This document shows positions 1 to 64,000 of a DNA stretch of 64,000 nt, piece after piece (the first letter of the stretch is position 1; each line of letters starts with the position of its first letter). This DNA comes from a virus, in the IMG/VR virus record IMGVR_UViG_3300017917_001151, positions 18,852-82,851 of that record, one strand, 5' to 3'. Under the pieces are notes generated by a model that was given only the letters and a program-made list of their open reading frames with translations, ran no database searches and was not told the DNA's origin. Both the position numbers and the translations under genes were made by a program.

Positions 1-2442
1 ACGAACAGCATCGTTAGCTAGGAATACGTCCATGTCTTGGTTTTCTTTAGGATAGTTTACACTTCCTGAACCGTCGATAACATCTTTTAGGGAAGTAATC
101 AGATCTGTTATAACAGCATCAGCACCGACTTCTGACTGATATGCTGGGTCAATAACCTGAGGATATATGTTATTTTTAGTATTAGTTATGGTTGCATTAT
201 TAATAACTTCCTGCATCAGATCTTCAAGATGTGTCAATACAGCTAGATATTCTGACAGTTGTGTAGTGATTGCTATTCTTGCACTATTGCTTTCATAATA
301 TTTTAAACCTGCAGAAATAGTCCTGTTATATCCTCCGTATTTCAAATCGAACACAAAAGAATCGACTAATAATCCAACGTCTCTTTTACATAGTGCTTGA
401 TTATAGACAAATGTAGGAGTAAACGGTGCTACAGAATTTTGTATATTATAATTCATCCATGCAACAATTTCTTCTGACAAGAATGATCGGTTTAGATCTA
501 TTAATGCAGCAGCGCCGGTAAACCCTCCTTTATTGTCTATCTTGGGATAAACCGGCTGACTTGGATTTTGTAAGTAATGATATCCAAATTCTCTAGAAGC
601 ATCGGTTACAGGTATTCCGTCTATGACTAAATCTCTGCGGAATTTTTGGAAGGCCCATGGAGAACTCGATGTTCCTGGTTTTGGTCTAAAAATAACTCTA
701 CGGAATTCATCACCAACGATAGACACGTTAGCTGGTACTCTTAGAGGATAGTTTTCATAGTACTCGCCACTTTCCACCAAAATAGAAATTTGTATATCTT
801 TAGAAATGTCACCGTATGAAATAGCTTCGCCTAATTCGAAAGTTCCTGATTTAATATCAACATCAAAAATTTCGTTACCGTTACTGTCTAATGCTCCTTG
901 GTGTGAAAGGATCTGAGCGAGAGCTCCTGAGTTTTCACCTCTTAGATATAGACCTTCTCGAATATCTCGACCTCTGGCAGCTTCTGCAGTATTAGTTGTT
1001 ACGTCGCCGGTGAAGTCAGTTCTTTGGCCTGCTGTATAAATTAAGAATCGAGGAAGGTCAACGTTTAGAGTAGGCAGGGTAGTAAATCCAGTACCTTTGT
1101 CAGTAATGGTAATACTAGTAATAACGCCTGCGGTAACAACAGCAGTACCAAACGCACCAGTTCCGCCACCGCCTGAAATTCTAACAGATACTAAAGAATA
1201 TCCTGTACCGCCATTGAGAATCGTTACAGAGTTGACTCTATAAGTAACATCAAATGTTGCCCCGTCTCCAATCGCTCCAATACCTGCCGGTGCAGCAGAT
1301 GTTGAGATTACAGTGGCAACAGCAGTCGATCCGGGTAATACTGTGTATGAACCTGAAGAAATGATCTTGTAAGTTAAGATAGCACCGGGTGTTGTTATGG
1401 TAGAAAGAACTTCAATGTAACATCTGCCCCCACCAGTAGGAACAGCACCGCCCTGTATTTCTAATATATCGCCTGGATAGTAGTTAGTACCAACACTGTT
1501 GATATTAACAGTGTCAACGCTCATTCTTAAGAAGCCATCGAATCCAGCACCGGAAGTTGGTGATGATTCAATAGCAGATAGGCTACATTCGTTAGCACCA
1601 TCGCCGTAGGTTAAGACTTTCTTATATGGGCCGATTTGTACTTTAGCATCTAAAACTAATTCTTCAGCTTTCTTTAAAGCTGCCTCTAACGTTCTATAAG
1701 CATAGGCTAGTGCTCGACCTTGAATAGCTTTTGATACTCCTGGTCTTGAATCCTGACCTGATAGCGAAACATATAAGTTTGCCACGCTACCGAAAGCAGA
1801 ACCGTCAACATATCGTTTGGTAACTGCAATCAATCCGTCGTAAACTTCGTCGTCACCTGGTTCGGGGTCTCTAGAAAGAATAAGTGGACCGCTCATGCGT
1901 CCAAAAGCAGAATCTGCCTGACCTGTTGCAGGATCTATAGCTTCAGTACCTGCTCTGGCAATTTTAGAATCTGCATAGGCTTTGTTTACTAATTCGTGTT
2001 TGTAAATAGGCTGCAACGGAGTGATAGTAGTACCTGCATCAATAACCCTCCATTGATTTCCGCCCGAACGTAAGGATAAATCGCCGCCTAGTTGTGGACT
2101 AGGATCAGAAGCGATAGAAGCGAAATCTGAATTGATTGTTATTTCGTTAGGATTTGAAATAAAATCAATGCTAATACCGTTACCTGGTACTAGTCTTTTA
2201 AATGTTAATCCGGATTCTGTATTGTTTACAGTTACAACAGGAGTACTACCGGTTGCTGGATCGTTTTGGCCAGTATAAGATGCGGGAGCATCGTCAAGTC
2301 CTATAAAGGTGAGCTTATCACCTAATCCTAAAGAACTGTATAGTTCGCGAAAGTTATCATTAACTTTACGGAAGGAATCTCTTATACTATCACCAGTACC
2401 ATCATTACCTACGGTACCAATATCAATTATTCTACGTGCCAT
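1..2442 (-). CDS. Baseplate wedge/tail-fibre-type virion protein (3' end outside window)
   Basis: Not in the ORF track. ATG at 2442 reads MARRIIDIGTVGNDGTGDSIRDSFRKVNDNFRELY, the T4 gp9/gp10-like N-terminal motif, followed by Gly/Ser/Thr-rich sequence. TAAATA motif upstream at about 2473-2478. Confidence 0.75.
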   Translation of the reverse strand, partial: MARRIIDIGTVGNDGTGDSIRDSFRKVNDNFRELYSSLGLGDKLTFIGLDDAPASYTGQNDPATGSTPVVTVNNTESGLTFKRLVPGNGISIDFISNPNEITINSDFASIASDPSPQLGGDLSLRSGGNQWRVIDAGTTITPLQPIYKHELVNKAYADSKIARAGTEAIDPATGQADSAFGRMSGPLILSRDPEPGDDEVYDGLIAVTKRYVDGSAFGSVANLYVSLSGQDSRPGVSKAIQGRALAYAYRTLEAALKKAEELVLDAKVQIGPYKKVLTYGDGANECSLSAIESSPTSGAGFDGFLRMSVDTVNINSVGTNYYPGDILEIQGGAVPTGGGRCYIEVLSTITTPGAILTYKIISSGSYTVLPGSTAVATVISTSAAPAGIGAIGDGATFDVTYRVNSVTILNGGTGYSLVSVRISGGGGTGAFGTAVVTAGVITSITITDKGTGFTTLPTLNVDLPRFLIYTAGQRTDFTGDVTTNTAEAARGRDIREGLYLRGENSGALAQILSHQGALDSNGNEIFDVDIKSGTFELGEAISYGDISKDIQISILVESGEYYENYPLRVPANVSIVGDEFRRVIFRPKPGTSSSPWAFQKFRRDLVIDGIPVTDASREFGYHYLQNPSQPVYPKIDNKGGFTGAAALIDLNRSFLSEEIVAWMNYNIQNSVAPFTPTFVYNQALCKRDVGLLVDSFVFDLKYGGYNRTISAGLKYYESNSARIAITTQLSEYLAVLTHLEDLMQEVINNATITNTKNNIYPQVIDPAYQSEVGADAVITDLITSLKDVIDGSGSVNYPKENQDMDVFLANDAVR

Positions 2443-18654: not shown

Positions 18655-19647
18655 ATGGAATTAATTGAAATAAAACAAGACGGATGGGATCCAGAAACAT
18701 TGTGGGTCGAACTAACTATCGGAAATATCTGCAATTTTAAATGTTGGTATTGTTTTCCGGGGTACAACGACGGCAGTATAAAGTGGCCGGACTACGATCT
18801 GTTGATTTCTAATCTTTCTCATTTGTTGGATTATTATCAAACACATACAGATAAGAAAAAATTTGCTATTCATTTATTAGGTGGCGAAATTATTTTTTGG
18901 AAGAGATTCGTCGACCTTTCTAAATTTTTAAAAGAAAATTATAACTGTGTAATCATATTAACAACAAATGCTTCTAAAAATATAGATTGGTGGGAAGAAT
19001 CTGTTGGATGGTTAGACATTGTTCATATAAGTGTTCATCATGAATTTTCAAATCCTAAACATATAATCGATGTAGCAGATTTTTTATACGACAAAAAAGT
19101 AGAAGTTGAGGTAAATGTATTCATGGATCCCTTTAAATGGGAAACATGCGCCGACATAGTTGAAGCGTTGAAAAACAGCAAAAATGTTTGGGATATAAAT
19201 TACAAAGAAATCCAATTTGATATACATAGAAGATATAACAAAGACCAAGATGAGTTACTCAATAAAGTAAACGCAAGGTCGTCAAACAAAGACAAAAAAT
19301 TTGTCATAGCACCGATGTCTCATAGACATTTTGTAAAAGGTGTTGATGTTAACGGAAAAGAACAATCCTACGGATTTAATGATTTACTTTCTCAAAGAAA
19401 CAACGAATTTAAAGGTTGGGACTGTAATGTTGGAGTAGATTGGATTGCCGTTCATGCAGACGGAACAGTTTCTGGAATTTGTAGAAATGGTTTATACAAA
19501 GATGGAAAAACTTATAATATTTTTGATCTAAATTTTAAAGAACAGTTCAACCCATCTATTACCAGTTCTATTTGTACAACTGATCGTTGTTGGTGTATAT
19601 TTGAAGTTAATATGCCTAAAAGAAAAATCATACCAATTTTATCATGA
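18655..19647 (+). CDS. Radical SAM protein, group A
   Basis: CNFKCWYC, GGE, CNVG...C..RCWC. Confidence 0.92.
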   Translation: MELIEIKQDGWDPETLWVELTIGNICNFKCWYCFPGYNDGSIKWPDYDLLISNLSHLLDYYQTHTDKKKFAIHLLGGEIIFWKRFVDLSKFLKENYNCVIILTTNASKNIDWWEESVGWLDIVHISVHHEFSNPKHIIDVADFLYDKKVEVEVNVFMDPFKWETCADIVEALKNSKNVWDINYKEIQFDIHRRYNKDQDELLNKVNARSSNKDKKFVIAPMSHRHFVKGVDVNGKEQSYGFNDLLSQRNNEFKGWDCNVGVDWIAVHADGTVSGICRNGLYKDGKTYNIFDLNFKEQFNPSITSSICTTDRCWCIFEVNMPKRKIIPILS

Positions 19648-57626: not shown

Positions 57627-57817
57627 TACCAATCCTCCACGCCTGCAATATCAACCTTAACTTTAGCAGGTCGATCGTTAATATCCATGTCCATTGTGAG
57701 GGTTAGGATACTACCAATTCCGCTAGAGTTATCCGCTTCAAGTTTATAACTTCTAGCGTCATCAAATTCGTTCATAACTGCTAGAATCTTTTCGACATCT
57801 TTTTTAGTGATATACAT
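57626..57817 (-). CDS. Small hypothetical protein
   Basis: AGGAG RBS; SSGIG motif. Confidence 0.75.
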   Translation of the reverse strand: MYITKKDVEKILAVMNEFDDARSYKLEADNSSGIGSILTLTMDMDINDRPAKVKVDIAGVEDW

Positions 57818-58329
57818 CAGATATCTCCTTCACGTTGCGGCGGCACCCAAATCTTTTTGTTGCCTAATTCATCATATTCGAACGGCACACCGTTTATAGT
57901 GTGCGGTTCGTTTTCATCGTAGGTCCAACCCAAAACTTTCATCATCTTGTGTTTAACCATCAAGTTAGGGCTACGATATGTTTCTGTATCACGGAAGCCC
58001 ATCATGACTCCAACTTCACAGACCGCGCCCGAACGACATACACCAGCAACACAATGAACGATAACGTCCATTCTGTTATCCAATGCGTGTTGTAGCAAGC
58101 GAACCAGTTCTGCGGCCTGCTCGTCGGTAATCTTAAATTCCTCACCCCATTTGTCATCACGCTCAAGATCTAGAAATTCAAATTGATAAACTTCACGGAA
58201 TTGATGTTTCGGAGTAGGAAACTCCATAGCAGGATCTACAATTTGGATCAGCATAGAGTTTTCCTTAACAGCCACATGATGACCTTTAGGAATATCTGCC
58301 AGCGATACATTTTGGATCCACGGATTCAT
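57817..58329 (-). CDS. Cys-based (PTP/dual-specificity-like) phosphatase
   Basis: VHCVAGVCRS (CX5R) motif. Confidence 0.8.
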   Translation of the reverse strand: MNPWIQNVSLADIPKGHHVAVKENSMLIQIVDPAMEFPTPKHQFREVYQFEFLDLERDDKWGEEFKITDEQAAELVRLLQHALDNRMDVIVHCVAGVCRSGAVCEVGVMMGFRDTETYRSPNLMVKHKMMKVLGWTYDENEPHTINGVPFEYDELGNKKIWVPPQREGDI

Positions 58330-58330
58330 T

Positions 58331-58771
58331 TTAAATTCCTTTTCCAAGTTTTGAATATTCTTCTTTTAAAATTTTTAGAATCTCTTCTGACTGGTCAAAT
58401 TCTTGAATAACTTCAACGACATCAAGTTCTTTGCTTACCGGAAACTTTTTGTGCTTCTTCGGACTAGGCTTTTTAAGACCTAGCAGTTCTTTTTCTTCGT
58501 CAGTGAGTCGATCTAGTGCTTCTTGGCGAATTCTTGCTTTTCGTTCTTCTTCTGCTATACGAGCTTTTTCTGCTCGGTCTGCTTTAACGTGAGCTTCCCA
58601 CCAATCGCGGACTTCTTCGTTTTTAAGAACTAGGAAATCTGCTTTGCCTTGACGAACGAGTTCTTCCATAGCCGCACAAGCGATTCTAGCCATTTTGTCC
58701 AGTTCTGCTTTAAGTTTAGGAGCAGAACTGCTGACTCCCCAATCGTCGCTTTCATAGTGTCTGCAGGGCAT
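58331..58771 (-). CDS. Hypothetical protein
   Basis: MPC start; WW..H...D coiled region; AGGAG RBS. Confidence 0.75.
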   Translation of the reverse strand: MPCRHYESDDWGVSSSAPKLKAELDKMARIACAAMEELVRQGKADFLVLKNEEVRDWWEAHVKADRAEKARIAEEERKARIRQEALDRLTDEEKELLGLKKPSPKKHKKFPVSKELDVVEVIQEFDQSEEILKILKEEYSKLGKGI

Positions 58772-58781
58772 AACGATCTCC

Positions 58782-58886
58782 TTACATAATTGCTAGAATA
58801 AAGATGAATAGAGCAATGACAGGGCTACCGGTCATTAGAGCAAACATCGCTAGGATAGTTCCAAAGAATACTTTGTCATCGCTCAT
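58782..58886 (-). CDS. Small hydrophobic membrane peptide (34 aa)
   Basis: Hand-translated MSDDKVFFGTILAMFALMTGSPVIALFIFILAIM; AGGAG RBS; ATGA coupling. Confidence 0.6.
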   Translation of the reverse strand: MSDDKVFFGTILAMFALMTGSPVIALFIFILAIM

Positions 58887-59137
58887 TTCACTTCTCCTGC
58901 GTGTTTGATGATAAACATAGTTACTTCGGGGCCGTCGAGTTTAACACAATCCACAGGATATTTGTTTTTCTCTGAGCCCCAACCGTTTTTACCAATACGG
59001 CGAACGCCAATCATCTTAGGATTAATCTTACGAACAACTCCGATGACTAAACTATTGCTCTGAGGATAGGCAACACAGTCGCCCATGTTTAAGACACGAC
59101 CAAGTTGGTCTCGGTGTTCTGGGAGTTCTTTTGCCAT
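58883..59137 (-). CDS. Small SH3-like hypothetical protein
   Basis: D.LGR.L..GD.VAY motif. Confidence 0.7.
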   Translation of the reverse strand: MAKELPEHRDQLGRVLNMGDCVAYPQSNSLVIGVVRKINPKMIGVRRIGKNGWGSEKNKYPVDCVKLDGPEVTMFIIKHAGEVK

Positions 59138-59805
59138 AATAGATCTAGATTGCCTTTCAGAATCTGTGAGCAGGTTGCTCGTTTGCCTGTTACGTGATCT
59201 TGGACAGAATCATCTTGGAATCTATATGTGCGGATTTTGTCTCCACGCATACCCGATCCTACCTGACGCTTTCTATCGTTTGCTATGTTACTATTATACG
59301 ATCTTTTGACGGTTTCGTCAAGTTGATTTTGGATAGCAGACATAGCCTGATCTAGGCTATTTTGGCGACTACGGCATTCTGCTTTGGCTGTGATACCTGT
59401 GGGAAGGTGTGTGATACGGCAGCTATTTTGGTGCTTGTTCCGATATTGTCCACCAGCACCTGTACCGCTATACCATTCAATCTTTAGATCGTTTTTGGCA
59501 ACAGCAACAGATCCAATTTCTGTTGTGCGGTCTATGACGGCAACAGTAACGGTGCTAGTGTGGACTCGGCCCTTCCTTTCGGTCGGAGGCACTCGCTGGA
59601 TTCTATGACCACCGGGCTCATTGTCTAAGCCGGATAGATCTTTGCCCTCTACAAGTAAACTACACTCGCCAGGACGAACATCTATCAGGCGGGTAGTTCA
59701 ACCCTTTTTGGCTCCGAGTTTCTGATACGCACCCGCGAGATCAGACACAAACAGTTTACTATCTTCTCCGCCCTCTGCGGCACGGATTTCAATCACTCGT
59801 TTCAT
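59089..59805 (-). CDS. RF1-like class I peptide release factor lacking domain 1, with in-frame UGA at codon 36
   Basis: AGGAG RBS and ATG 59805 give MKRVIEIRAAEGGEDS..AKKG-TGA-TTRL..E.GGHRIQRVPPTE..GRVHTS..GAGGQ..RTY in one frame. Confidence 0.85.
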
Positions 59806-59814
59806 AGTTACTCC

Positions 59815-60033
59815 TTATAAACGATATGTAACACGACCTTTGGTTAGATCGTATGCACTAACTTCTACTCTTACTTTGTCACCTAAGATAATTTTAATCT
59901 TGTGCTGTTTAAGTTTGCCACCGGTATAGCAGGTAATTGTACTAGGCATCTCGTTGAGTTTTACCTTATACATACTGCCCGGAAGGACTTCTTCTACTGT
60001 GCCTGTGAGTTCAATTAAATCAGCTTTTGACAT
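59815..60033 (-). CDS. infA: Translation initiation factor IF-1
   Basis: 72 aa; MSKADLIE..G.V.E.LP, GK, GD.V.VE.S.YDLTKGR motifs. Confidence 0.93.
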   Translation of the reverse strand: MSKADLIELTGTVEEVLPGSMYKVKLNEMPSTITCYTGGKLKQHKIKIILGDKVRVEVSAYDLTKGRVTYRL

Positions 60034-60244
60034 ATCTTCTCTTGTACCAACTGTAAGTTTCTCCGTTTGGCAATTTGCCTTCTTTGATTTCGTCAGCGCC
60101 AAAGACACCAACTATTTCCATACCGCCACCGTTTATTGTGACCAGTATGCCCAATTCTTTTGCGAAAGCTAGAGCTTCCGATAGATCTTTTACTGCTTCC
60201 TCACAGCCTCTACCCGCTGTGTCTTTCCATTCTACTTTATACAT
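60020..60244 (-). CDS. Small hypothetical protein
   Basis: MYKVEWKD start at ATG 60244; G.FGAD..G.LPNG..Y.W.KRR motif. Confidence 0.7.
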   Translation of the reverse strand: MYKVEWKDTAGRGCEEAVKDLSEALAFAKELGILVTINGGGMEIVGVFGADEIKEGKLPNGETYSWYKRRYVKS

Positions 60245-60280: not shown

Positions 60281-60354
60281 TGGTGCTCCAACCAAGAATT
60301 GAACTTGGATCTGCACTTTACCAAAGTGCTGTTCTACCATTTAACTATAGGAGC
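60281..60354 (-). tRNA. tRNA-Thr(GGT)
   Basis: Cloverleaf; GCACT-TTGGTAA-AGTGC; encoded CCA. Confidence 0.92.
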
Positions 60355-60358
60355 ATAT

Positions 60359-60433
60359 TGGCCCGGCTAGCAGGAATCGAACCCACATTCACTCTTTAGA
60401 AGAGAGTTGTATTCTCCATTATACGATAGCCAG
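60359..60433 (-). tRNA. tRNA-Arg(TCT)
   Basis: ACTCT-CTTCTAA-AGAGT; encoded CCA. Confidence 0.92.
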
Positions 60434-60434
60434 A

Positions 60435-60872
60435 TTATCTGTCGAACATTGTAAGACCGTTGAGGTGGTCTAGTTCGTGTTGGAAACATCTTGCGGCCCA
60501 ACCATCTAACCACTCTAGGGTTTCTTTGCCCTGTGCGGAATAGTAGCGGACTAAGATTTTCTTTGGCCTGTTTATTTCGCAGAACTGTCCCGAGAAGCTT
60601 AGACAACCTTCTGTGAGGTTTACCTGCTCTTCGCTGGATTCTACAATCTCAGGATTGAAGCAGTGATAAAACTTGTTGTCTACAAACATTACAAACAATC
60701 TAACATTTAAACCGCATTGATTAGCGGCCAAGCCCATGCCGCGTTCTTTCTGCATAGTGCGGATCATTTGATGTGCTAGTTCTAGATTCTTTTTAGGACG
60801 TTCAAAGGTTACTGGCGCACAGACGTCTTTTAATACTGAGCTATCTAGTTTTAAATTAGTAAACTTCAACAT
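60435..60872 (-). CDS. def: Peptide deformylase
   Basis: GMGLAANQ, EGCLS and QHELDHL motifs. Confidence 0.95.
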   Translation of the reverse strand: MLKFTNLKLDSSVLKDVCAPVTFERPKKNLELAHQMIRTMQKERGMGLAANQCGLNVRLFVMFVDNKFYHCFNPEIVESSEEQVNLTEGCLSFSGQFCEINRPKKILVRYYSAQGKETLEWLDGWAARCFQHELDHLNGLTMFDR

Positions 60873-61428
60873 CTGCGGCTAGAATAAACCTATATTGATT
60901 ACTTTGTACGATACCTGGTCTATGCCAGGTTTGGCTAGGATAGACGATCCAATGTCCGTCATTTGGACGAACGAAGAATTTACCATCGCCATCTACACCG
61001 TTGGGTGCTATTTCTGTTCCGCAGTAGTCTCGATCTTTTACATCATCGGGAATATGCAGATACCAAATACCACTGAACATACGAGCACCGGGCTGTGTTG
61101 GATGCCAGTGGTCATGCCATAGTTTTTCGCGATCTTCGGCACCCTCGAGATTGGTCATAAAAGACCAAGCCATCATATTACCAACTTTGGCTTCACGACC
61201 TAGGTACATGAATACGGAAAATAGAAAGCTCATACGATACTTTAACCAAACAGCTTCGGGTCTACCAAAAATATTTTCTTTGGTCTGATACTTAGGACTG
61301 TTAGTGAAGTAGTTGCCACCTTCGATTATTTGTTTGATTATTTCGCAGGCTTCAAAGTCATCCTGTTTAGTGATCAAAGAACTAAAATCGTATTTGCGAA
61401 CTAGAGCGTTTTCTTCTATAGCTATCAT
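60856..61428 (-). CDS. Putative Fe(II)/2OG oxygenase
   Basis: WHDH, SGIWYL and WHRP...RFILA motifs. Confidence 0.65.
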   Translation of the reverse strand: MIAIEENALVRKYDFSSLITKQDDFEACEIIKQIIEGGNYFTNSPKYQTKENIFGRPEAVWLKYRMSFLFSVFMYLGREAKVGNMMAWSFMTNLEGAEDREKLWHDHWHPTQPGARMFSGIWYLHIPDDVKDRDYCGTEIAPNGVDGDGKFFVRPNDGHWIVYPSQTWHRPGIVQSNQYRFILAADVEVY

Positions 61429-61433
61429 GAATT

Positions 61434-61506
61434 TGGAGCGGGTAGTCGGATTCGAACCGGCTTCATTAGCTTGGAAGGCTAAGTCCTCTCCCAGGAGAAT
61501 ACCCGC
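61434..61506 (-). tRNA. tRNA-Gly(TCC) with atypical D arm
   Basis: TTAGC-CTTCCAA-GCTAA; U73 and CCA; 73 nt. Confidence 0.85.
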
Positions 61507-61557
61507 ATTGTTTGTGACACAGTACTTATCCTATTATACGCCCGTGTCCGGCGAACC

Positions 61558-61631
61558 TGGTTGCGGGAGGCGGAATCGAACCACCATCTGAAGCTTATGA
61601 GACTTCTGAATTACCGTTACTCTATCCCGCG
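61558..61631 (-). tRNA. tRNA-Met(CAT), initiator-like
   Basis: C1:A72 mismatch; A11-U24; CTCATAA loop; CCA. Confidence 0.88.
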
Positions 61632-61638
61632 ATAGATA

Positions 61639-62211
61639 TTACAGTAGCTTCTCTGCGGTCAGAGTTGCTACTGTGTCTTCACTGAGAGGAATCTCAGTTT
61701 TGACATTGAACTCAAGGATTTCGTCGTTGAGTTTTTGTTTTTGCTTCTTAAGGTTAAGAACTTCGTTCTTGGCCTGTTCGATCTGCTCTTTGCTGAGCAC
61801 ACTGGTGCTCACTGTGTCGTTGTATCCGTATAGGCTACGACGACCTTCGCCTTTGTCGTTGCGGATCTTATCCAGCTTACCTTTGATGACTTCTAGTTCA
61901 GTCATTACCTGTGCGCTGGCCAACTGCTCTAGTTGTACGATACGCTTATCGATAAAAGCTGCCTTGGCCAGGCTAGTGCTGATACCGCTGGCTGCATTTG
62001 CTGTACCTATCAGGGCACGGATATTGTAGAGAGCCATGGTCAGGCGCTGACGACGACCATCGGCTTCGACGAGATCGTTATTGGCCTTGGCAATAACATC
62101 TTCAACTGTTTGGAACTCGTTGATCTCGACATTGAGATCTACTTTGATGCTTTTGATTACATCTTGGATGCTGTTCTGTAGTGCGTTTGCTTTTCTTAGT
62201 GTGATGTTCAT
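61639..62211 (-). CDS. Helical coiled-coil protein (190 aa)
   Basis: MNITLRKANALQ start after AGAGAG; heptad-rich; C-terminal L..N..TEI motif. Confidence 0.8.
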   Translation of the reverse strand: MNITLRKANALQNSIQDVIKSIKVDLNVEINEFQTVEDVIAKANNDLVEADGRRQRLTMALYNIRALIGTANAASGISTSLAKAAFIDKRIVQLEQLASAQVMTELEVIKGKLDKIRNDKGEGRRSLYGYNDTVSTSVLSKEQIEQAKNEVLNLKKQKQKLNDEILEFNVKTEIPLSEDTVATLTAEKLL

Positions 62212-62231
62212 TTGTGTCTCTCTTTTAAAAT

Positions 62232-62477
62232 AACGGTTTGGTAAAAGGTCAAGTAATAGACCGGACAATTGACAAGACCTATTGTACGACGTCGTCGGTC
62301 TAAGCAATGTGCAATAGACAGGCTACAGAGGCCTGAATATTTCCGATCGGCAATTGACAGGTATATAAGAATCGGTTCACTCAAGCACGGACAGTTTTCA
62401 AGACTGTTTGCCAGGATTAAGTCATTGGCATGAAGCCAATGTTGTCTACCCTCATCTACCTTTTACCTCGCCGGTTG
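62232..62477 (-). ncRNA. Structured, repeat-bearing leader RNA of the coiled-coil gene
   Basis: 10-bp closing helix GGUAAAAGGU/ACCUUUUACC; several internal hairpins; four GUCWAUU repeats. Confidence 0.65.
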
Positions 62478-62501
62478 TGCTATTGCTAACACAACAAAAC
62501 A

Positions 62502-62530
62502 ATTATACGATAAAAAAAGGTGTTTGTCAA
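62502..62530 (-). promoter_or_regulatory. Consensus sigma70 promoter
   Basis: TTGACA(62530-62525)-N17-TATAAT(62507-62502). Confidence 0.88.
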
Positions 62531-62538
62531 CACCTTTT
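62512..62538 (-). terminator. Intrinsic terminator of the tRNA transcript, overlapping the -35 box
   Basis: AAAAGGTGTT-GACA-AACACCTTTTTTT on the minus strand. Confidence 0.75.
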
Positions 62539-62546
62539 GGTAAACC

Positions 62547-62621
62547 TGGTGCTGGTTGTCGGATTTGAACTGACGACCTACTGCTTACAAGGCAGTTGCT
62601 CTACCACTGAGCTAAACCAGC
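62547..62621 (-). tRNA. tRNA-Thr(TGT)
   Basis: ACTGC-CTTGTAA-GCAGT; CCA. Confidence 0.93.
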
Positions 62622-62640
62622 ATACTACTATATATCTTCT

Positions 62641-62716
62641 TGGTGGAGGTAAACGGGATCGAACCGATGACCTTTAGCTTGCAAAGCTACTGCTCTCCCA
62701 GCTGAGCTATACCCCC
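62641..62716 (-). tRNA. tRNA-Ala(TGC)
   Basis: G3:U70 pair; TTTGCAA loop; CCA. Confidence 0.95.
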
Positions 62717-62725
62717 TCAGAATAT

Positions 62726-62926
62726 TTACACTTCTGAACGACCCGAAGTACAAGAATCTGACCACAGTGTCTGTGCCTGCTTCTTATATTCGTTTAATTC
62801 CCATTCAGCTTTTTTAGCCTGATACTGTTCTTCGTTTAGTCCGTGCCAACCGATGCAATCACCAGTCGGTGAACGACCGCAACCGCAGGTACCAATTTTA
62901 CCTTCTGGATTTGCTCTGACCTGCAT
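62726..62926 (-). CDS. CDGSH/NEET-like small Fe-S- or Zn-binding protein
   Basis: CGCGRSPTGDCIGWH resembles the C-x-C-x2-S-x3-P-x-C-D-G-S-H motif. Confidence 0.6.
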   Translation of the reverse strand: MQVRANPEGKIGTCGCGRSPTGDCIGWHGLNEEQYQAKKAEWELNEYKKQAQTLWSDSCTSGRSEV

Positions 62927-63105
62927 TATTCGCTCCTATCAGTCTTACGACCTTTTTCACGTTTAGGTTGAATAGCAGCGGCAAGCTCTGCACCGATCAT
63001 TGCACGTTTCCATGCATTACGATCATCTGCATTGCGATATTGACCTAACGCAAGACTGCGTTTAGTCTGAGCACTCATACGATAATTTGGACCTGGTTTT
63101 AACAT
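62926..63105 (-). CDS. Small basic hypothetical protein (59 aa)
   Basis: Hand-translated MLKPGPNYRMSAQTKRSLA...; GAGGA RBS; TAATG coupling. Confidence 0.7.
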   Translation of the reverse strand: MLKPGPNYRMSAQTKRSLALGQYRNADDRNAWKRAMIGAELAAAIQPKREKGRKTDRSE

Positions 63106-63127
63106 TTATTATCCTCTTTTTAAAATC

Positions 63128-63215
63128 TGGCGGAGAGTATAGGATTCGAACCTATGCGCCCATTTCTGAACGACGGTTTAGCAAACCGCTGCCTTAACCA
63201 CTCGGCCAACTCTCC
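63128..63215 (-). tRNA. tRNA-Ser(GCT)
   Basis: Long variable arm; TTGCTAA loop; G73 and CCA. Confidence 0.95.
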
Positions 63216-63220
63216 ATAAC

Positions 63221-63295
63221 TGGTGCATCGACAAGGGATTGAACCTTGGACCTTCGCCTTGTAAGGGCGTTGCTCTACCGCTGAGCTATCGATGC
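63221..63295 (-). tRNA. tRNA-Val(TAC)
   Basis: CTTACAA loop; CCA. Confidence 0.93.
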
Positions 63296-63303
63296 AAATT
63301 CTA

Positions 63304-63417
63304 TTAACTCGGTACTACATGCGGTATATAAGGCACTGCTCTAGGACCGCCATATAGTTGTTCAAAAAGTTTTTTAGCTTCTTGCGGTGTGCGTACTGTT
63401 GTTTCATACATTGGCAT
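63304..63417 (-). CDS. Small hypothetical protein (37 aa)
   Basis: AGGAG RBS; MPMYETTVRTPQEAKKLFEQLYGGPRAVPYIPHVVPS. Confidence 0.55.
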   Translation of the reverse strand: MPMYETTVRTPQEAKKLFEQLYGGPRAVPYIPHVVPS

Positions 63418-63432
63418 ACCGTACTCCTAATA

Positions 63433-63509
63433 TGGTCCGTGTGACACGATTCGAACATGCGACCACCTGGTCCCAAACCAGGAGCTCTACCAGGCTGAGC
63501 TACACACCG
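63433..63509 (-). tRNA. tRNA-Pro(TGG)
   Basis: CCTGG-TTTGGGA-CCAGG; CCA; G2:G71 mismatch. Confidence 0.92.
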
Positions 63510-63596
63510 TACTATTATGAAACACACTAATCTACCCTATGTAGCTATGTTGATCAGTCAAAACATCAAGCTCAACTAATGTGTTTTATAATAGTG

Positions 63597-64000
63597 CCTA
63601 AGGTTGAGATTACACCTTAAGCTAATAGTGCTTCTAGCATTATAGTCAGCCTTGCGAGCCAACCTTCTCTAGACATCCACTAAGACCCTTGCGGTATCCT
63701 AGTCCACTATCAGCATCGCCGTTTTTAAAGACAGGCAGTAGTCTTGTCGCCATATGCTATTCTACGCTTTCTTTTCCGTTGAGCTTGCGACCCATTAAGC
63801 CTTGCGGGCTACGAAACTTCCTGCATAAACAGATTTCACCTTGCGAGCTACGTCTGACTGTATTACCTTTCGGCTACAGTATTAGATGCTTTTCACATAC
63901 GACCGAGGCAGTCTTTGCGTTTTTGTTCGATAGTTGGAGTTGAACCAACAGTCAAATGCTTAAAAGGCATTCGCATTACCATTATGCTATATCAACCTAC
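63597..64000 (-). ncRNA. Large structured ncRNA, GOLLD-like 3' domain (5' part outside window)
   Basis: Five GCAA and one GAAA tetraloop hairpins on the minus strand; terminal AAGGU-GUAAUCUCA-ACCUU hairpin; located in a tRNA cluster. Confidence 0.65.
63925..63996 (-). tRNA. tRNA-Lys(TTT) without encoded CCA, apparently embedded in the large ncRNA
   Basis: AATGC-CTTTTAA-GCATT; T arm GTTGG-TTCAACT-CCAAC; imperfect acceptor end. Confidence 0.75.

Follow-up and report, generated by a model that had tools for sequence, protein, structure and literature searches.

How can a phage make a release factor (RF) from a gene that carries an in-frame stop codon at its 36th codon, and why would it keep that stop? 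The question is raised by a short gene resembling that of bacterial RF1 on the minus strand of a 64,000-nucleotide (nt) stretch of viral DNA (hereafter the window), positions 18,852 to 82,851, i.e., the last 64 kb, of the 82.9-kb IMG/VR virus contig IMGVR_UViG_3300017917_001151, for which CheckV gives a completeness of 23%. An earlier note, made from the letters alone, had pointed to an in-frame UGA with a hairpin directly behind it and had proposed that the factor is produced only when termination at UGA is weak. The parts of the gene are, in window coordinates:

59089..59805, minus strand: short RF1-like release factor gene, 238 amino acids with TGA read as Trp; domains 2-4, without domain 1
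59811..59816, minus strand: Shine-Dalgarno (SD) sequence AAGGAG, 5 nt ahead of the ATG (59805-59803)
59701..59805, minus strand: first 35 codons, beginning with MKRVIEIRAAEGGED, the start of RF domain 2 with EIRAAEGGED
59698..59700, minus strand: codon 36, an in-frame TGA where RF1 has its conserved Trp; the next base is A
59581..59589, minus strand: PPT tripeptide, the RF1-type PxT codon-recognition motif, residues 73-75
59446..59454, minus strand: GGQ peptidyl-tRNA hydrolysis motif, residues 118-120

We lean towards the view that the UGA is a site of programmed UGA-to-Trp readthrough, at which competition between RF2 and tRNA-Trp would gate the production of the RF1-like factor. The earlier reading of the frame held up in every element, from the SD sequence and the ATG at 59805 through 35 sense codons, which translate as MKRVIEIRAAEGGEDSKLFVSDLAGAYQKLGAKKG, and the TGA at 59700-59698 to the continuation of the same frame through HRIQRVPPTE, GRVHTS and GGQ, and the frame closes with a TAA at 59091-59089. 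The UGA had also been placed at a position that is commonly Trp in RF1, and codon 36 indeed aligns to the W of 'ERKGW' in Thermotoga RF1 (1rq0/2fvo).

The stop is kept without exception. A search of viral contigs for related loci returned 39 family loci at 60-89% amino acid identity, and TGA stands at codon 36 in all 38 that cover this codon; L031 begins past codon 36 and was not counted, and L027 is 5'-truncated yet shows the TGA. Both were left out of the set of 28 distinct relatives used for codon context and hairpin, in which the codon ahead of the TGA is GGY, the base after it is A in 26 sequences and G in 2, and most members have an SD sequence of the GGAG type. TGG in homologs, which according to the earlier note would have indicated a single nonsense mutation or a sequencing error, was not encountered: a 26-nt degenerate pattern with TGG had no match in either viral_contigs or metagenome_contigs, and the same pattern with TGA matched 31 and 55 contigs, two sets that overlap in part. 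The codons on either side of the TGA are under purifying selection, and in the first 35 codons the amino acids are kept despite many synonymous changes (Leu18 is written with six codons). Since the protein is kept through synonymous changes, both halves appear to be translated in this frame. The codon at 59698-59700 is also covered by contigs (not reads) from one RNA-library run and two DNA runs, which have no difference there among the rows listed, although they do differ nearby; this is weak evidence, taken from contigs, and has no bearing on translation. Gene callers return C-terminal fragments of 176-189 amino acids on long contigs, and these are what the protein database holds for such contigs, as would be expected if the gene were broken or split, be it as a pseudogene, through a sequencing error or because a C-terminal protein is started internally. 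Such an explanation is scarcely credible for a gene whose two halves lie in one frame under purifying selection in 38 of 38 relatives and whose residues 1-35 make up part of the domain-2 fold in the AlphaFold model described below. The start called for the fragments is the codon of Val43, which varies between GTT, GTA and GTG from one relative to another and is not preceded by an SD sequence, and a comparison of the relatives revealed no conserved start or SD sequence after the TGA. Judged by its conservation, the TGA is a selected recoding site and neither a mutation nor an error.

What would be made by reading through this codon is well defined. Pfam matches PCRF at profile positions 103-194 only, the C-terminal half, plus the RF-1 domain. 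In NCBIfam, prfA ranks first (202.6 bits), followed by prfB (120.7) and prfH (37), with all of these scores under their cut-offs; the prfA models reach 202.6 and 201.1 bits where their cut-offs demand 400 and 423.25. Alignment to prfA sets in only at position 107 or 115 of the profile and domain 1 (about 100 residues) is therefore absent, and the start of the query corresponds to residue 87 of Thermotoga RF1 chain 1rq0. PPT, which aligns to PVT of Thermotoga RF1, and GGQ are both invariant in 37 aligned family members. An AlphaFold model (37 family members; predicted local distance difference test 81.3, pTM 0.68) has ribosome-bound RF1 of Thermus and E. coli as its top Foldseek matches (TMq 0.84, root-mean-square deviation 2.6 Å, 228 columns). 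Pfam, NCBIfam and structure matches agree with each other and with the domain-1-less factor with RF1-type PxT described in the earlier note, and the predicted product is a phage-specific, domain-1-less RF1-type class-I release factor. From the PPT motif alone we infer that it reads UAA and UAG, and not UGA. A role in ribosome rescue, also considered in the note, found nothing in its favour, as the codon-reading domain is complete and the model fits stop-codon-bound RF1.

Two side observations concern the ends and the more distant kin of this protein. Relatives usually end in ...LLW (225 amino acids), and the RF gene of the contig analysed here, like those of L002 and L006, is longer by about 13 codons, which implies loss or displacement of the normal stop in this contig; the 3' extension (59089-59137) overlaps the start of the next open reading frame (ORF; 58883-59137). 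Another 23 more distant viral loci (L041-L063) encode stand-alone GGQ-domain proteins of about 100-140 amino acids that are not short RF1s. They begin with MKELLFS(V/I)TKKD..., share a SGTGAGGQYRNKHQNC motif with this RF, are without codon-reading domains and have an ArfB-like look, and they are uninformative about the UGA.

Could TGA simply be a sense codon in these phages, be it through genetic code 4 or a late code switch, or through an opal suppressor tRNA that escaped detection? Phages for which this combination is known exist, in that RF1 forms part of the standard-coded 'code change module' of TGA-recoded Jade phages, as far as the account by Borges et al. goes (bioRxiv 10.1101/2021.08.26.457843). 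In addition, the protein database holds family members of 222-237 amino acids with W at residue 36, all of them on contigs of at most 5.8 kb. One of 73 full-length database proteins was traced to its DNA (P0005 on L176), and there the codon is TGA, so that the W of this protein is an artefact of the gene caller's code-4 model and not a TGG allele. The usage of stop codons speaks the same language. The 77 non-nested ORFs of at least 100 amino acids in the window end with TAA in 45 cases, TGA in 26 and TAG in 6, which bears out what the earlier note had said about TGA as an ordinary stop outside the RF gene; in 9 of the 26 ORFs closed by TGA, the stop shares an ATGA with the start of the ORF that follows. 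The relatives include the complete contigs G001 (363,943 bp) and G002 (222,825 bp, with terminal repeats), whose stop usage is like that of the window; TGA terminates about 30% of ORFs in the window and its relatives, TAG accounts for only 4-5% of stops in G001 and G002 and for 4-7% in the clade, and the RF gene itself also ends in TGA in L029, L030 and L034. With table 11, ORFs of at least 100 amino acids cover 0.92 of the contig itself, 0.89 of G001 and 0.82 of G002, the gaps being mainly tRNA arrays, and stop usage per 20-kb bin revealed no TGA-free module of the kind expected for late-gene avoidance.

When the contig was compared with G001 by best-frame tblastx (96 high-scoring segment pairs, 10,702 amino acids), the sole internal stop was that of the RF gene, and between G001 and G002 the RF gene was again the only one with a conserved stop well inside the alignment. 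The conserved internal TAA at 337.8-338.8 kb of G001 separates two neighbouring genes that share a frame. Noise precluded the use of an unfiltered tblastx listing and of a search, from stop to stop, for further in-frame TGA or TAG candidates. A cognate decoder was not detected either. ARAGORN finds 31 tRNAs in G001 and 38 in G002, and none with anticodon UCA and no tRNA-Sec in either; the flanks of the 39 loci contain no opal suppressor tRNA, and none of the anticodons UCA, CUA and CCA occurs among the 10 array tRNAs of the window fragment. SelB is absent from five phage records, each of which has exactly one RF-1-domain gene and thus no phage RF2. By these comparisons the phages use the standard code and are without a cognate UGA suppressor, and it is highly improbable that TGA is a sense codon here.

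A conserved UGA in a phage with standard code and no cognate suppressor means that the full protein needs readthrough in frame zero. Near-cognate tRNA-Trp is an established reader of UGA, and Trp, the residue that RF1 has at this position, is quite likely to be the one inserted. The following course of events can then be envisaged. Most ribosomes starting from the strong SD sequence would meet RF2 at the UGA and release a dead-end peptide of 35 residues, and some would accept the near-cognate Trp-tRNA(CCA) by wobble at the third base and go on to the 238-residue factor, in which Trp would take its normal RF1 position. The reading tRNA may be the phage's own tRNA-Trp, and the yield would be set by RF2 versus tRNA-Trp at codon 36, possibly tuned by the A at position +4 and by a short helix. 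Gating by RF2 activity is put forward tentatively, with slightly less than even expectation. A product that reads UAA and UAG through its PxT motif, and not UGA, cannot directly shut its own gate. An indirect negative loop is conceivable instead, in which the factor would take over UAA, the commonest phage stop (about 58-65% of genes), RF2 would be freed for UGA and readthrough would fall.

The tRNA in question was traced in the relatives. tRNA-Trp(CCA) is encoded in G001, in G002 and in the flank of L025, adjoining the RF gene in the tRNA array, and in all three clade members the D-stem pair 11:24 is U-A and thus Watson-Crick. In E. coli trpT this pair is U.G; blastn of the phage tRNA-Trp against E. 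coli gave no match, and trpT was therefore taken by its annotated coordinates from the K-12 record. The Hirsh UGA suppressor is a G24-to-A change in tRNA-Trp, as related by Jeudy et al. (2012, PMC3521657). There is an alternative to the gating of the factor by RF2: the gene could be part of a feed-forward timer, with efficient reading of the UGA setting in only once the phage tRNA-Trp(CCA, A24) accumulates, whatever the level of RF2, and the factor appearing after expression of the tRNA array. Readthrough would be retained in this scheme and the logic of control would differ. The presence of the U11-A24 tRNA beside the RF gene in both complete relatives and L025 fits such a timer, and Mimivirus likewise pairs an RF-gene UGA with a Hirsh-like tRNA-Trp in the account of PMC3521657. 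We nevertheless regard the timer as unlikely. A tRNA of this kind would also read the stops of those phage genes, roughly 30%, that close with TGA, one of the two tRNA-Trp copies of the huge phage LR756501 has C-G at 11:24, and an effect of A24 in these tRNA bodies is presumed by analogy.

A further tRNA deserves mention at this point. A tRNA with anticodon CUA, labelled 'Pyl' by ARAGORN, lies at 339529-339603 (plus strand) in G001 and at 130-204 (plus strand) in G002, and two more are found in the 735-kb phage LR756501 (locus L195, 86-159 and 164-239). It is thus present in three of the four larger genomes checked and does not occur in the window, which is a fragment. The coexistence of a potential amber suppressor tRNA with an extra release factor predicted to read UAG is a puzzling pairing, and it might mean that these phages take charge of every one of the three stop codons in the infected cell.

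What does the RNA behind the stop contribute? The hairpin, which the earlier note had described with the same pairings, is present in the window:

59659..59697, minus strand: hairpin, ACUAC/GUAGU plus CGCC/GGCG
59697-59693 with 59663-59659, minus strand: outer helix, ACUAC/GUAGU
59691-59688 (CGCC) with 59670-59667 (GGCG), minus strand: inner helix, beginning 6 nt after the UGA

A helix 6 nt past the stop would be at the mRNA entrance of the ribosome when the UGA is in the A site. A 76-nt stretch folds with -23.3 kcal/mol (z = -2.0), and 8 of 200 shuffled sequences fold as well, so that the hairpin is only modestly better than chance for this single sequence. Among the 28 distinct relatives, 65.7% of the cells of the outer helix are paired, and the inner helix is 91.1% paired and hardly varies, with a double change in one pair only. 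Folded singly, the relatives have a mean z of -0.95, and the stem is formed in most close relatives and in only some divergent ones. In some relatives the register is shifted, with Ser49 swapped between AGU and UCA and GUUCA/UGAAC replacing GUAGU/ACUAC. Synonymous variation in codons 37-48 amounts to 0.51 of expectation, which is among the lowest values in the gene, and for 63-nt windows starting at -15, 0 and +15 relative to the UGA, the mean z is -1.68, -1.05 and -1.96 compared with about -0.5 elsewhere, except that the mean z dips at +60 and +180 as well. Taken together, the synonymous dip and the local excess of folding suggest some constraint at the RNA level. A role for the helix in readthrough is possible, though we would sooner doubt it than assume it. 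The homolog alignment called for in the earlier note thus upholds the TGA and the inner helix, without clear covariation. Of its interpretation, the recoding site, the RF1-type product and the need for zero-frame readthrough stand, and support for the hairpin is moderate only.

A stem-loop that begins at or next to a UGA and whose loop codons show little synonymous change also calls to mind a bacterial selenocysteine insertion sequence, with the SelB of the host inserting selenocysteine. There is very little chance of this. RF1 has Trp at the position, the five phage records contain no SelB and the two complete genomes no tRNA-Sec, Rfam gave no match near the UGA site, the structure is not kept in divergent members of the family, and the UGAs of other lineages are mostly without a strong hairpin.

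These other lineages came to light in a tblastn search of GenBank phages, which matched huge phages described by Al-Shayeb et al. with 34-38% identity; six of these were examined. In-frame TGAs are found at codons 46 and 54 in LR745206 (L095), at codons 39 and 52 in LR756501 (L097), at codon 52 in LR756502 (L098) and at codon 44 in LR756504 (L099), in each case in a short RF gene (224-232 amino acids) with PPT. LR756511 has no internal stop in its RF gene, and LR745208 (L096) looks frameshifted or broken and was excluded. In 40-kb samples of two of the huge-phage genomes, table 11 fits about as well as table 4 and 7 of 40 and 3 of 48 ORFs close with TGA, which makes the call of the code less secure there. 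No tRNA(UCA) was seen among the 58 ARAGORN tRNAs each of LR756501 and LR745206, whose Rfam tRNA matches number 66 and 61, so that a few are untyped. The tRNA-Trp pair 11:24 is U-A in two of three copies, namely in LR745206 and in one of the two copies of LR756501. UGAs at several early positions in separate lineages indicate that an early UGA is selected rather than one particular site, and two UGAs in one gene, as in LR745206 and LR756501, imply that suppression can be efficient, which is again a point for the timer.

A simpler view would be that the UGA does no sensing at all and merely cuts the yield of a potentially harmful factor to a few percent of that of a strong IF-1/RF operon. UGA is the leakiest stop codon, a strong SD sequence combined with an early stop would give a fixed low output, and the evidence for the hairpin is weak, all of which accords with pure attenuation. 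We consider it distinctly unlikely because a weak SD sequence or start codon would suffice for the purpose, yet the SD is strong in most relatives; furthermore, the stop is held without exception over 60-89% identity and recurs elsewhere in other lineages, and the synonymous constraint comes after the stop.

Readthrough gated by competition between RF2 and tRNA-Trp has to be weighed against several observations that do not favour it. RNAalifold recovers neither helix from the 28 relatives (-2.19 kcal/mol), there is no convincing covariation in the hairpin of this set, and a second region (alignment codons 164-176, a variable stretch with few comparable pairs) is equally low in synonymous variation and z-score. 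Of the UGAs in the other lineages, two are followed by a strong hairpin (z = -3.87 and -2.32) and four by none. Simple leakiness would allow only very inefficient readthrough of a gene with two UGAs, and such genes hint at a stronger mechanism of suppression. The A at +4 also follows 73 of 233 (31%) genuine phage TGA stops and, being common at ordinary stops, is no mark of a leaky site by itself. U11-A24, compared here with E. coli only, may merely be a common tRNA feature. In the codon-reading part of the protein, the GGxE motif is written GGED (residues 12-15, 59772-59761), with Asp as its acidic residue. The Glu of GGxE contacts the first base of the stop codon. Where cellular RF1 and RF2 have GGxE, the present family and the short RFs of the other huge phages (L095-L100) have GG(E/D/N)D, and this conserved Glu-to-Asp exchange in a codon-reading element may be relevant for specificity. 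Finally, the feedback loop through the UAA workload is itself our inference.

If gated readthrough is extended to a general scheme, it would amount to a cross-factor homeostat of termination, in which the RF1-like factor is made in proportion to failed RF2 termination and restores RF2 capacity by taking over UAA stops. Such a device would have arisen repeatedly in huge phages and, by convergence, in the RF gene of giant viruses, in every case accompanied by a viral tRNA-Trp whose D stem is Hirsh-like. We offer this as a speculation in which we have rather little confidence.

The genetic surroundings of the gene are those of a translation cluster:

59815..60111, minus strand: IF-1 homologue, directly upstream; the RF gene starts 9 nt behind the IF-1 gene
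60435..60872, minus strand: peptide deformylase, belonging to the same translation-gene cluster
60281..63997, minus strand: tRNA array with 10 tRNAs, reaching the end of the contig

The TAA of the IF-1 gene overlaps the SD region of the RF gene, and the two genes are therefore probably co-transcribed. The phages of this clade are jumbo phages, and the public runs containing the stretch are labelled as pond, aquatic or freshwater metagenomes; run shares below 0.2 and uncovered bins were not counted as evidence. Just downstream of the cluster, an ORF at 57817-58347 (minus strand) has weak matches to dual-specificity/tyrosine phosphatases (E about 1e-5, under the Pfam cut-offs). The central 40 kb of the window (16000-56000) have a G+C content of 0.34-0.37 compared with 0.40-0.44 in the flanks and many strand switches, and form a compositionally distinct block. 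G001 (298488-298862, minus strand) and G002 (113486-113987, plus strand) each encode a permuted, two-piece transfer-messenger RNA (tmRNA), with the tags ANDNVYALAA and ANDSKFALAA, respectively. With a tmRNA of their own, the phages have ribosome rescue among their translation functions as well, and the finding may be a hint to the host group.

How does the gene compare with known systems? The nearest counterpart is the class-I RF gene of Mimivirus (R726) and Megavirus (mg280), which in the description of Jeudy et al. (2012, PMC3521657) has a conserved in-frame UGA in its 5' region, with no cognate tRNA encoded and a tRNA-Trp with the Hirsh-like D-arm adenine, and which these authors read as autoregulated. 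As far as that description goes, the two cases share a conserved UGA to be read through, the lack of a cognate tRNA and an A in the 11:24 pair of tRNA-Trp, here from sequence alone. They differ in that the giant-virus factor is of the eRF1/aRF1 type, belongs to a eukaryotic virus, involves a second event (a frameshift) and reads its own gate codon, whereas the phage factor is of the bacterial RF1 type, is without domain 1, would need a single readthrough and is predicted from its PxT not to read UGA.

Class-I RFs among tRNAs and translation genes are also a feature of the Jade phages with their RF1 and of the huge phages whose RF1 and RF2 genes are listed in PMC7162821. Unlike the Jade phages the present one is not TGA-recoded, and the accounts of the Jade and huge-phage genes mention, in the parts that bear on release factors, no internal RF stop. 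A 2026 survey of jumbo phages mentions, in its corresponding part, only RF2 in connection with TAG recoding (PMC13037316). Full-text searches of the literature, supplementary tables not being covered, turned up no phage RF1 gene described as having an internal stop. Gene callers split or mistranslate such genes, as fragments or as code-4-style calls on short contigs, and phage surveys would consequently under-report or mis-describe them.

Among class-I RF relatives without domain 1, the phage factor resembles PrfH (RF-H) and ArfB. It is set apart from PrfH by its TIGR03072 prfH score of 37 bits against a cut-off of 166.65, and from ArfB by the codon-reading domains 2 and 4, which are kept here and lacking in ArfB.

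With bacterial prfB, the gene for RF2, it has in common an early in-frame UGA and a full-length product that needs failed RF2 termination. In prfB, however, the ribosome shifts by +1 at CUU UGA with the help of an SD-like stimulator upstream, and RF2 senses its own level there, whereas in the phage gene frame 0 would be kept, the ancestral Trp restored and a factor of the other class (RF1-like) made, so that any feedback would be indirect. To our knowledge, programmed recoding inside RF genes, a textbook example of translational autoregulation, is known only for bacterial RF2, by frameshifting, and for one giant-virus eRF1-like gene. If our reading is true, the phage gene would be one of the rare natural examples of a bacterial system in which a stop codon has to be read through, with a recoding element that is short and portable, and a third form of RF-gene recoding, the first in which the supply of one factor reports the activity of the other.

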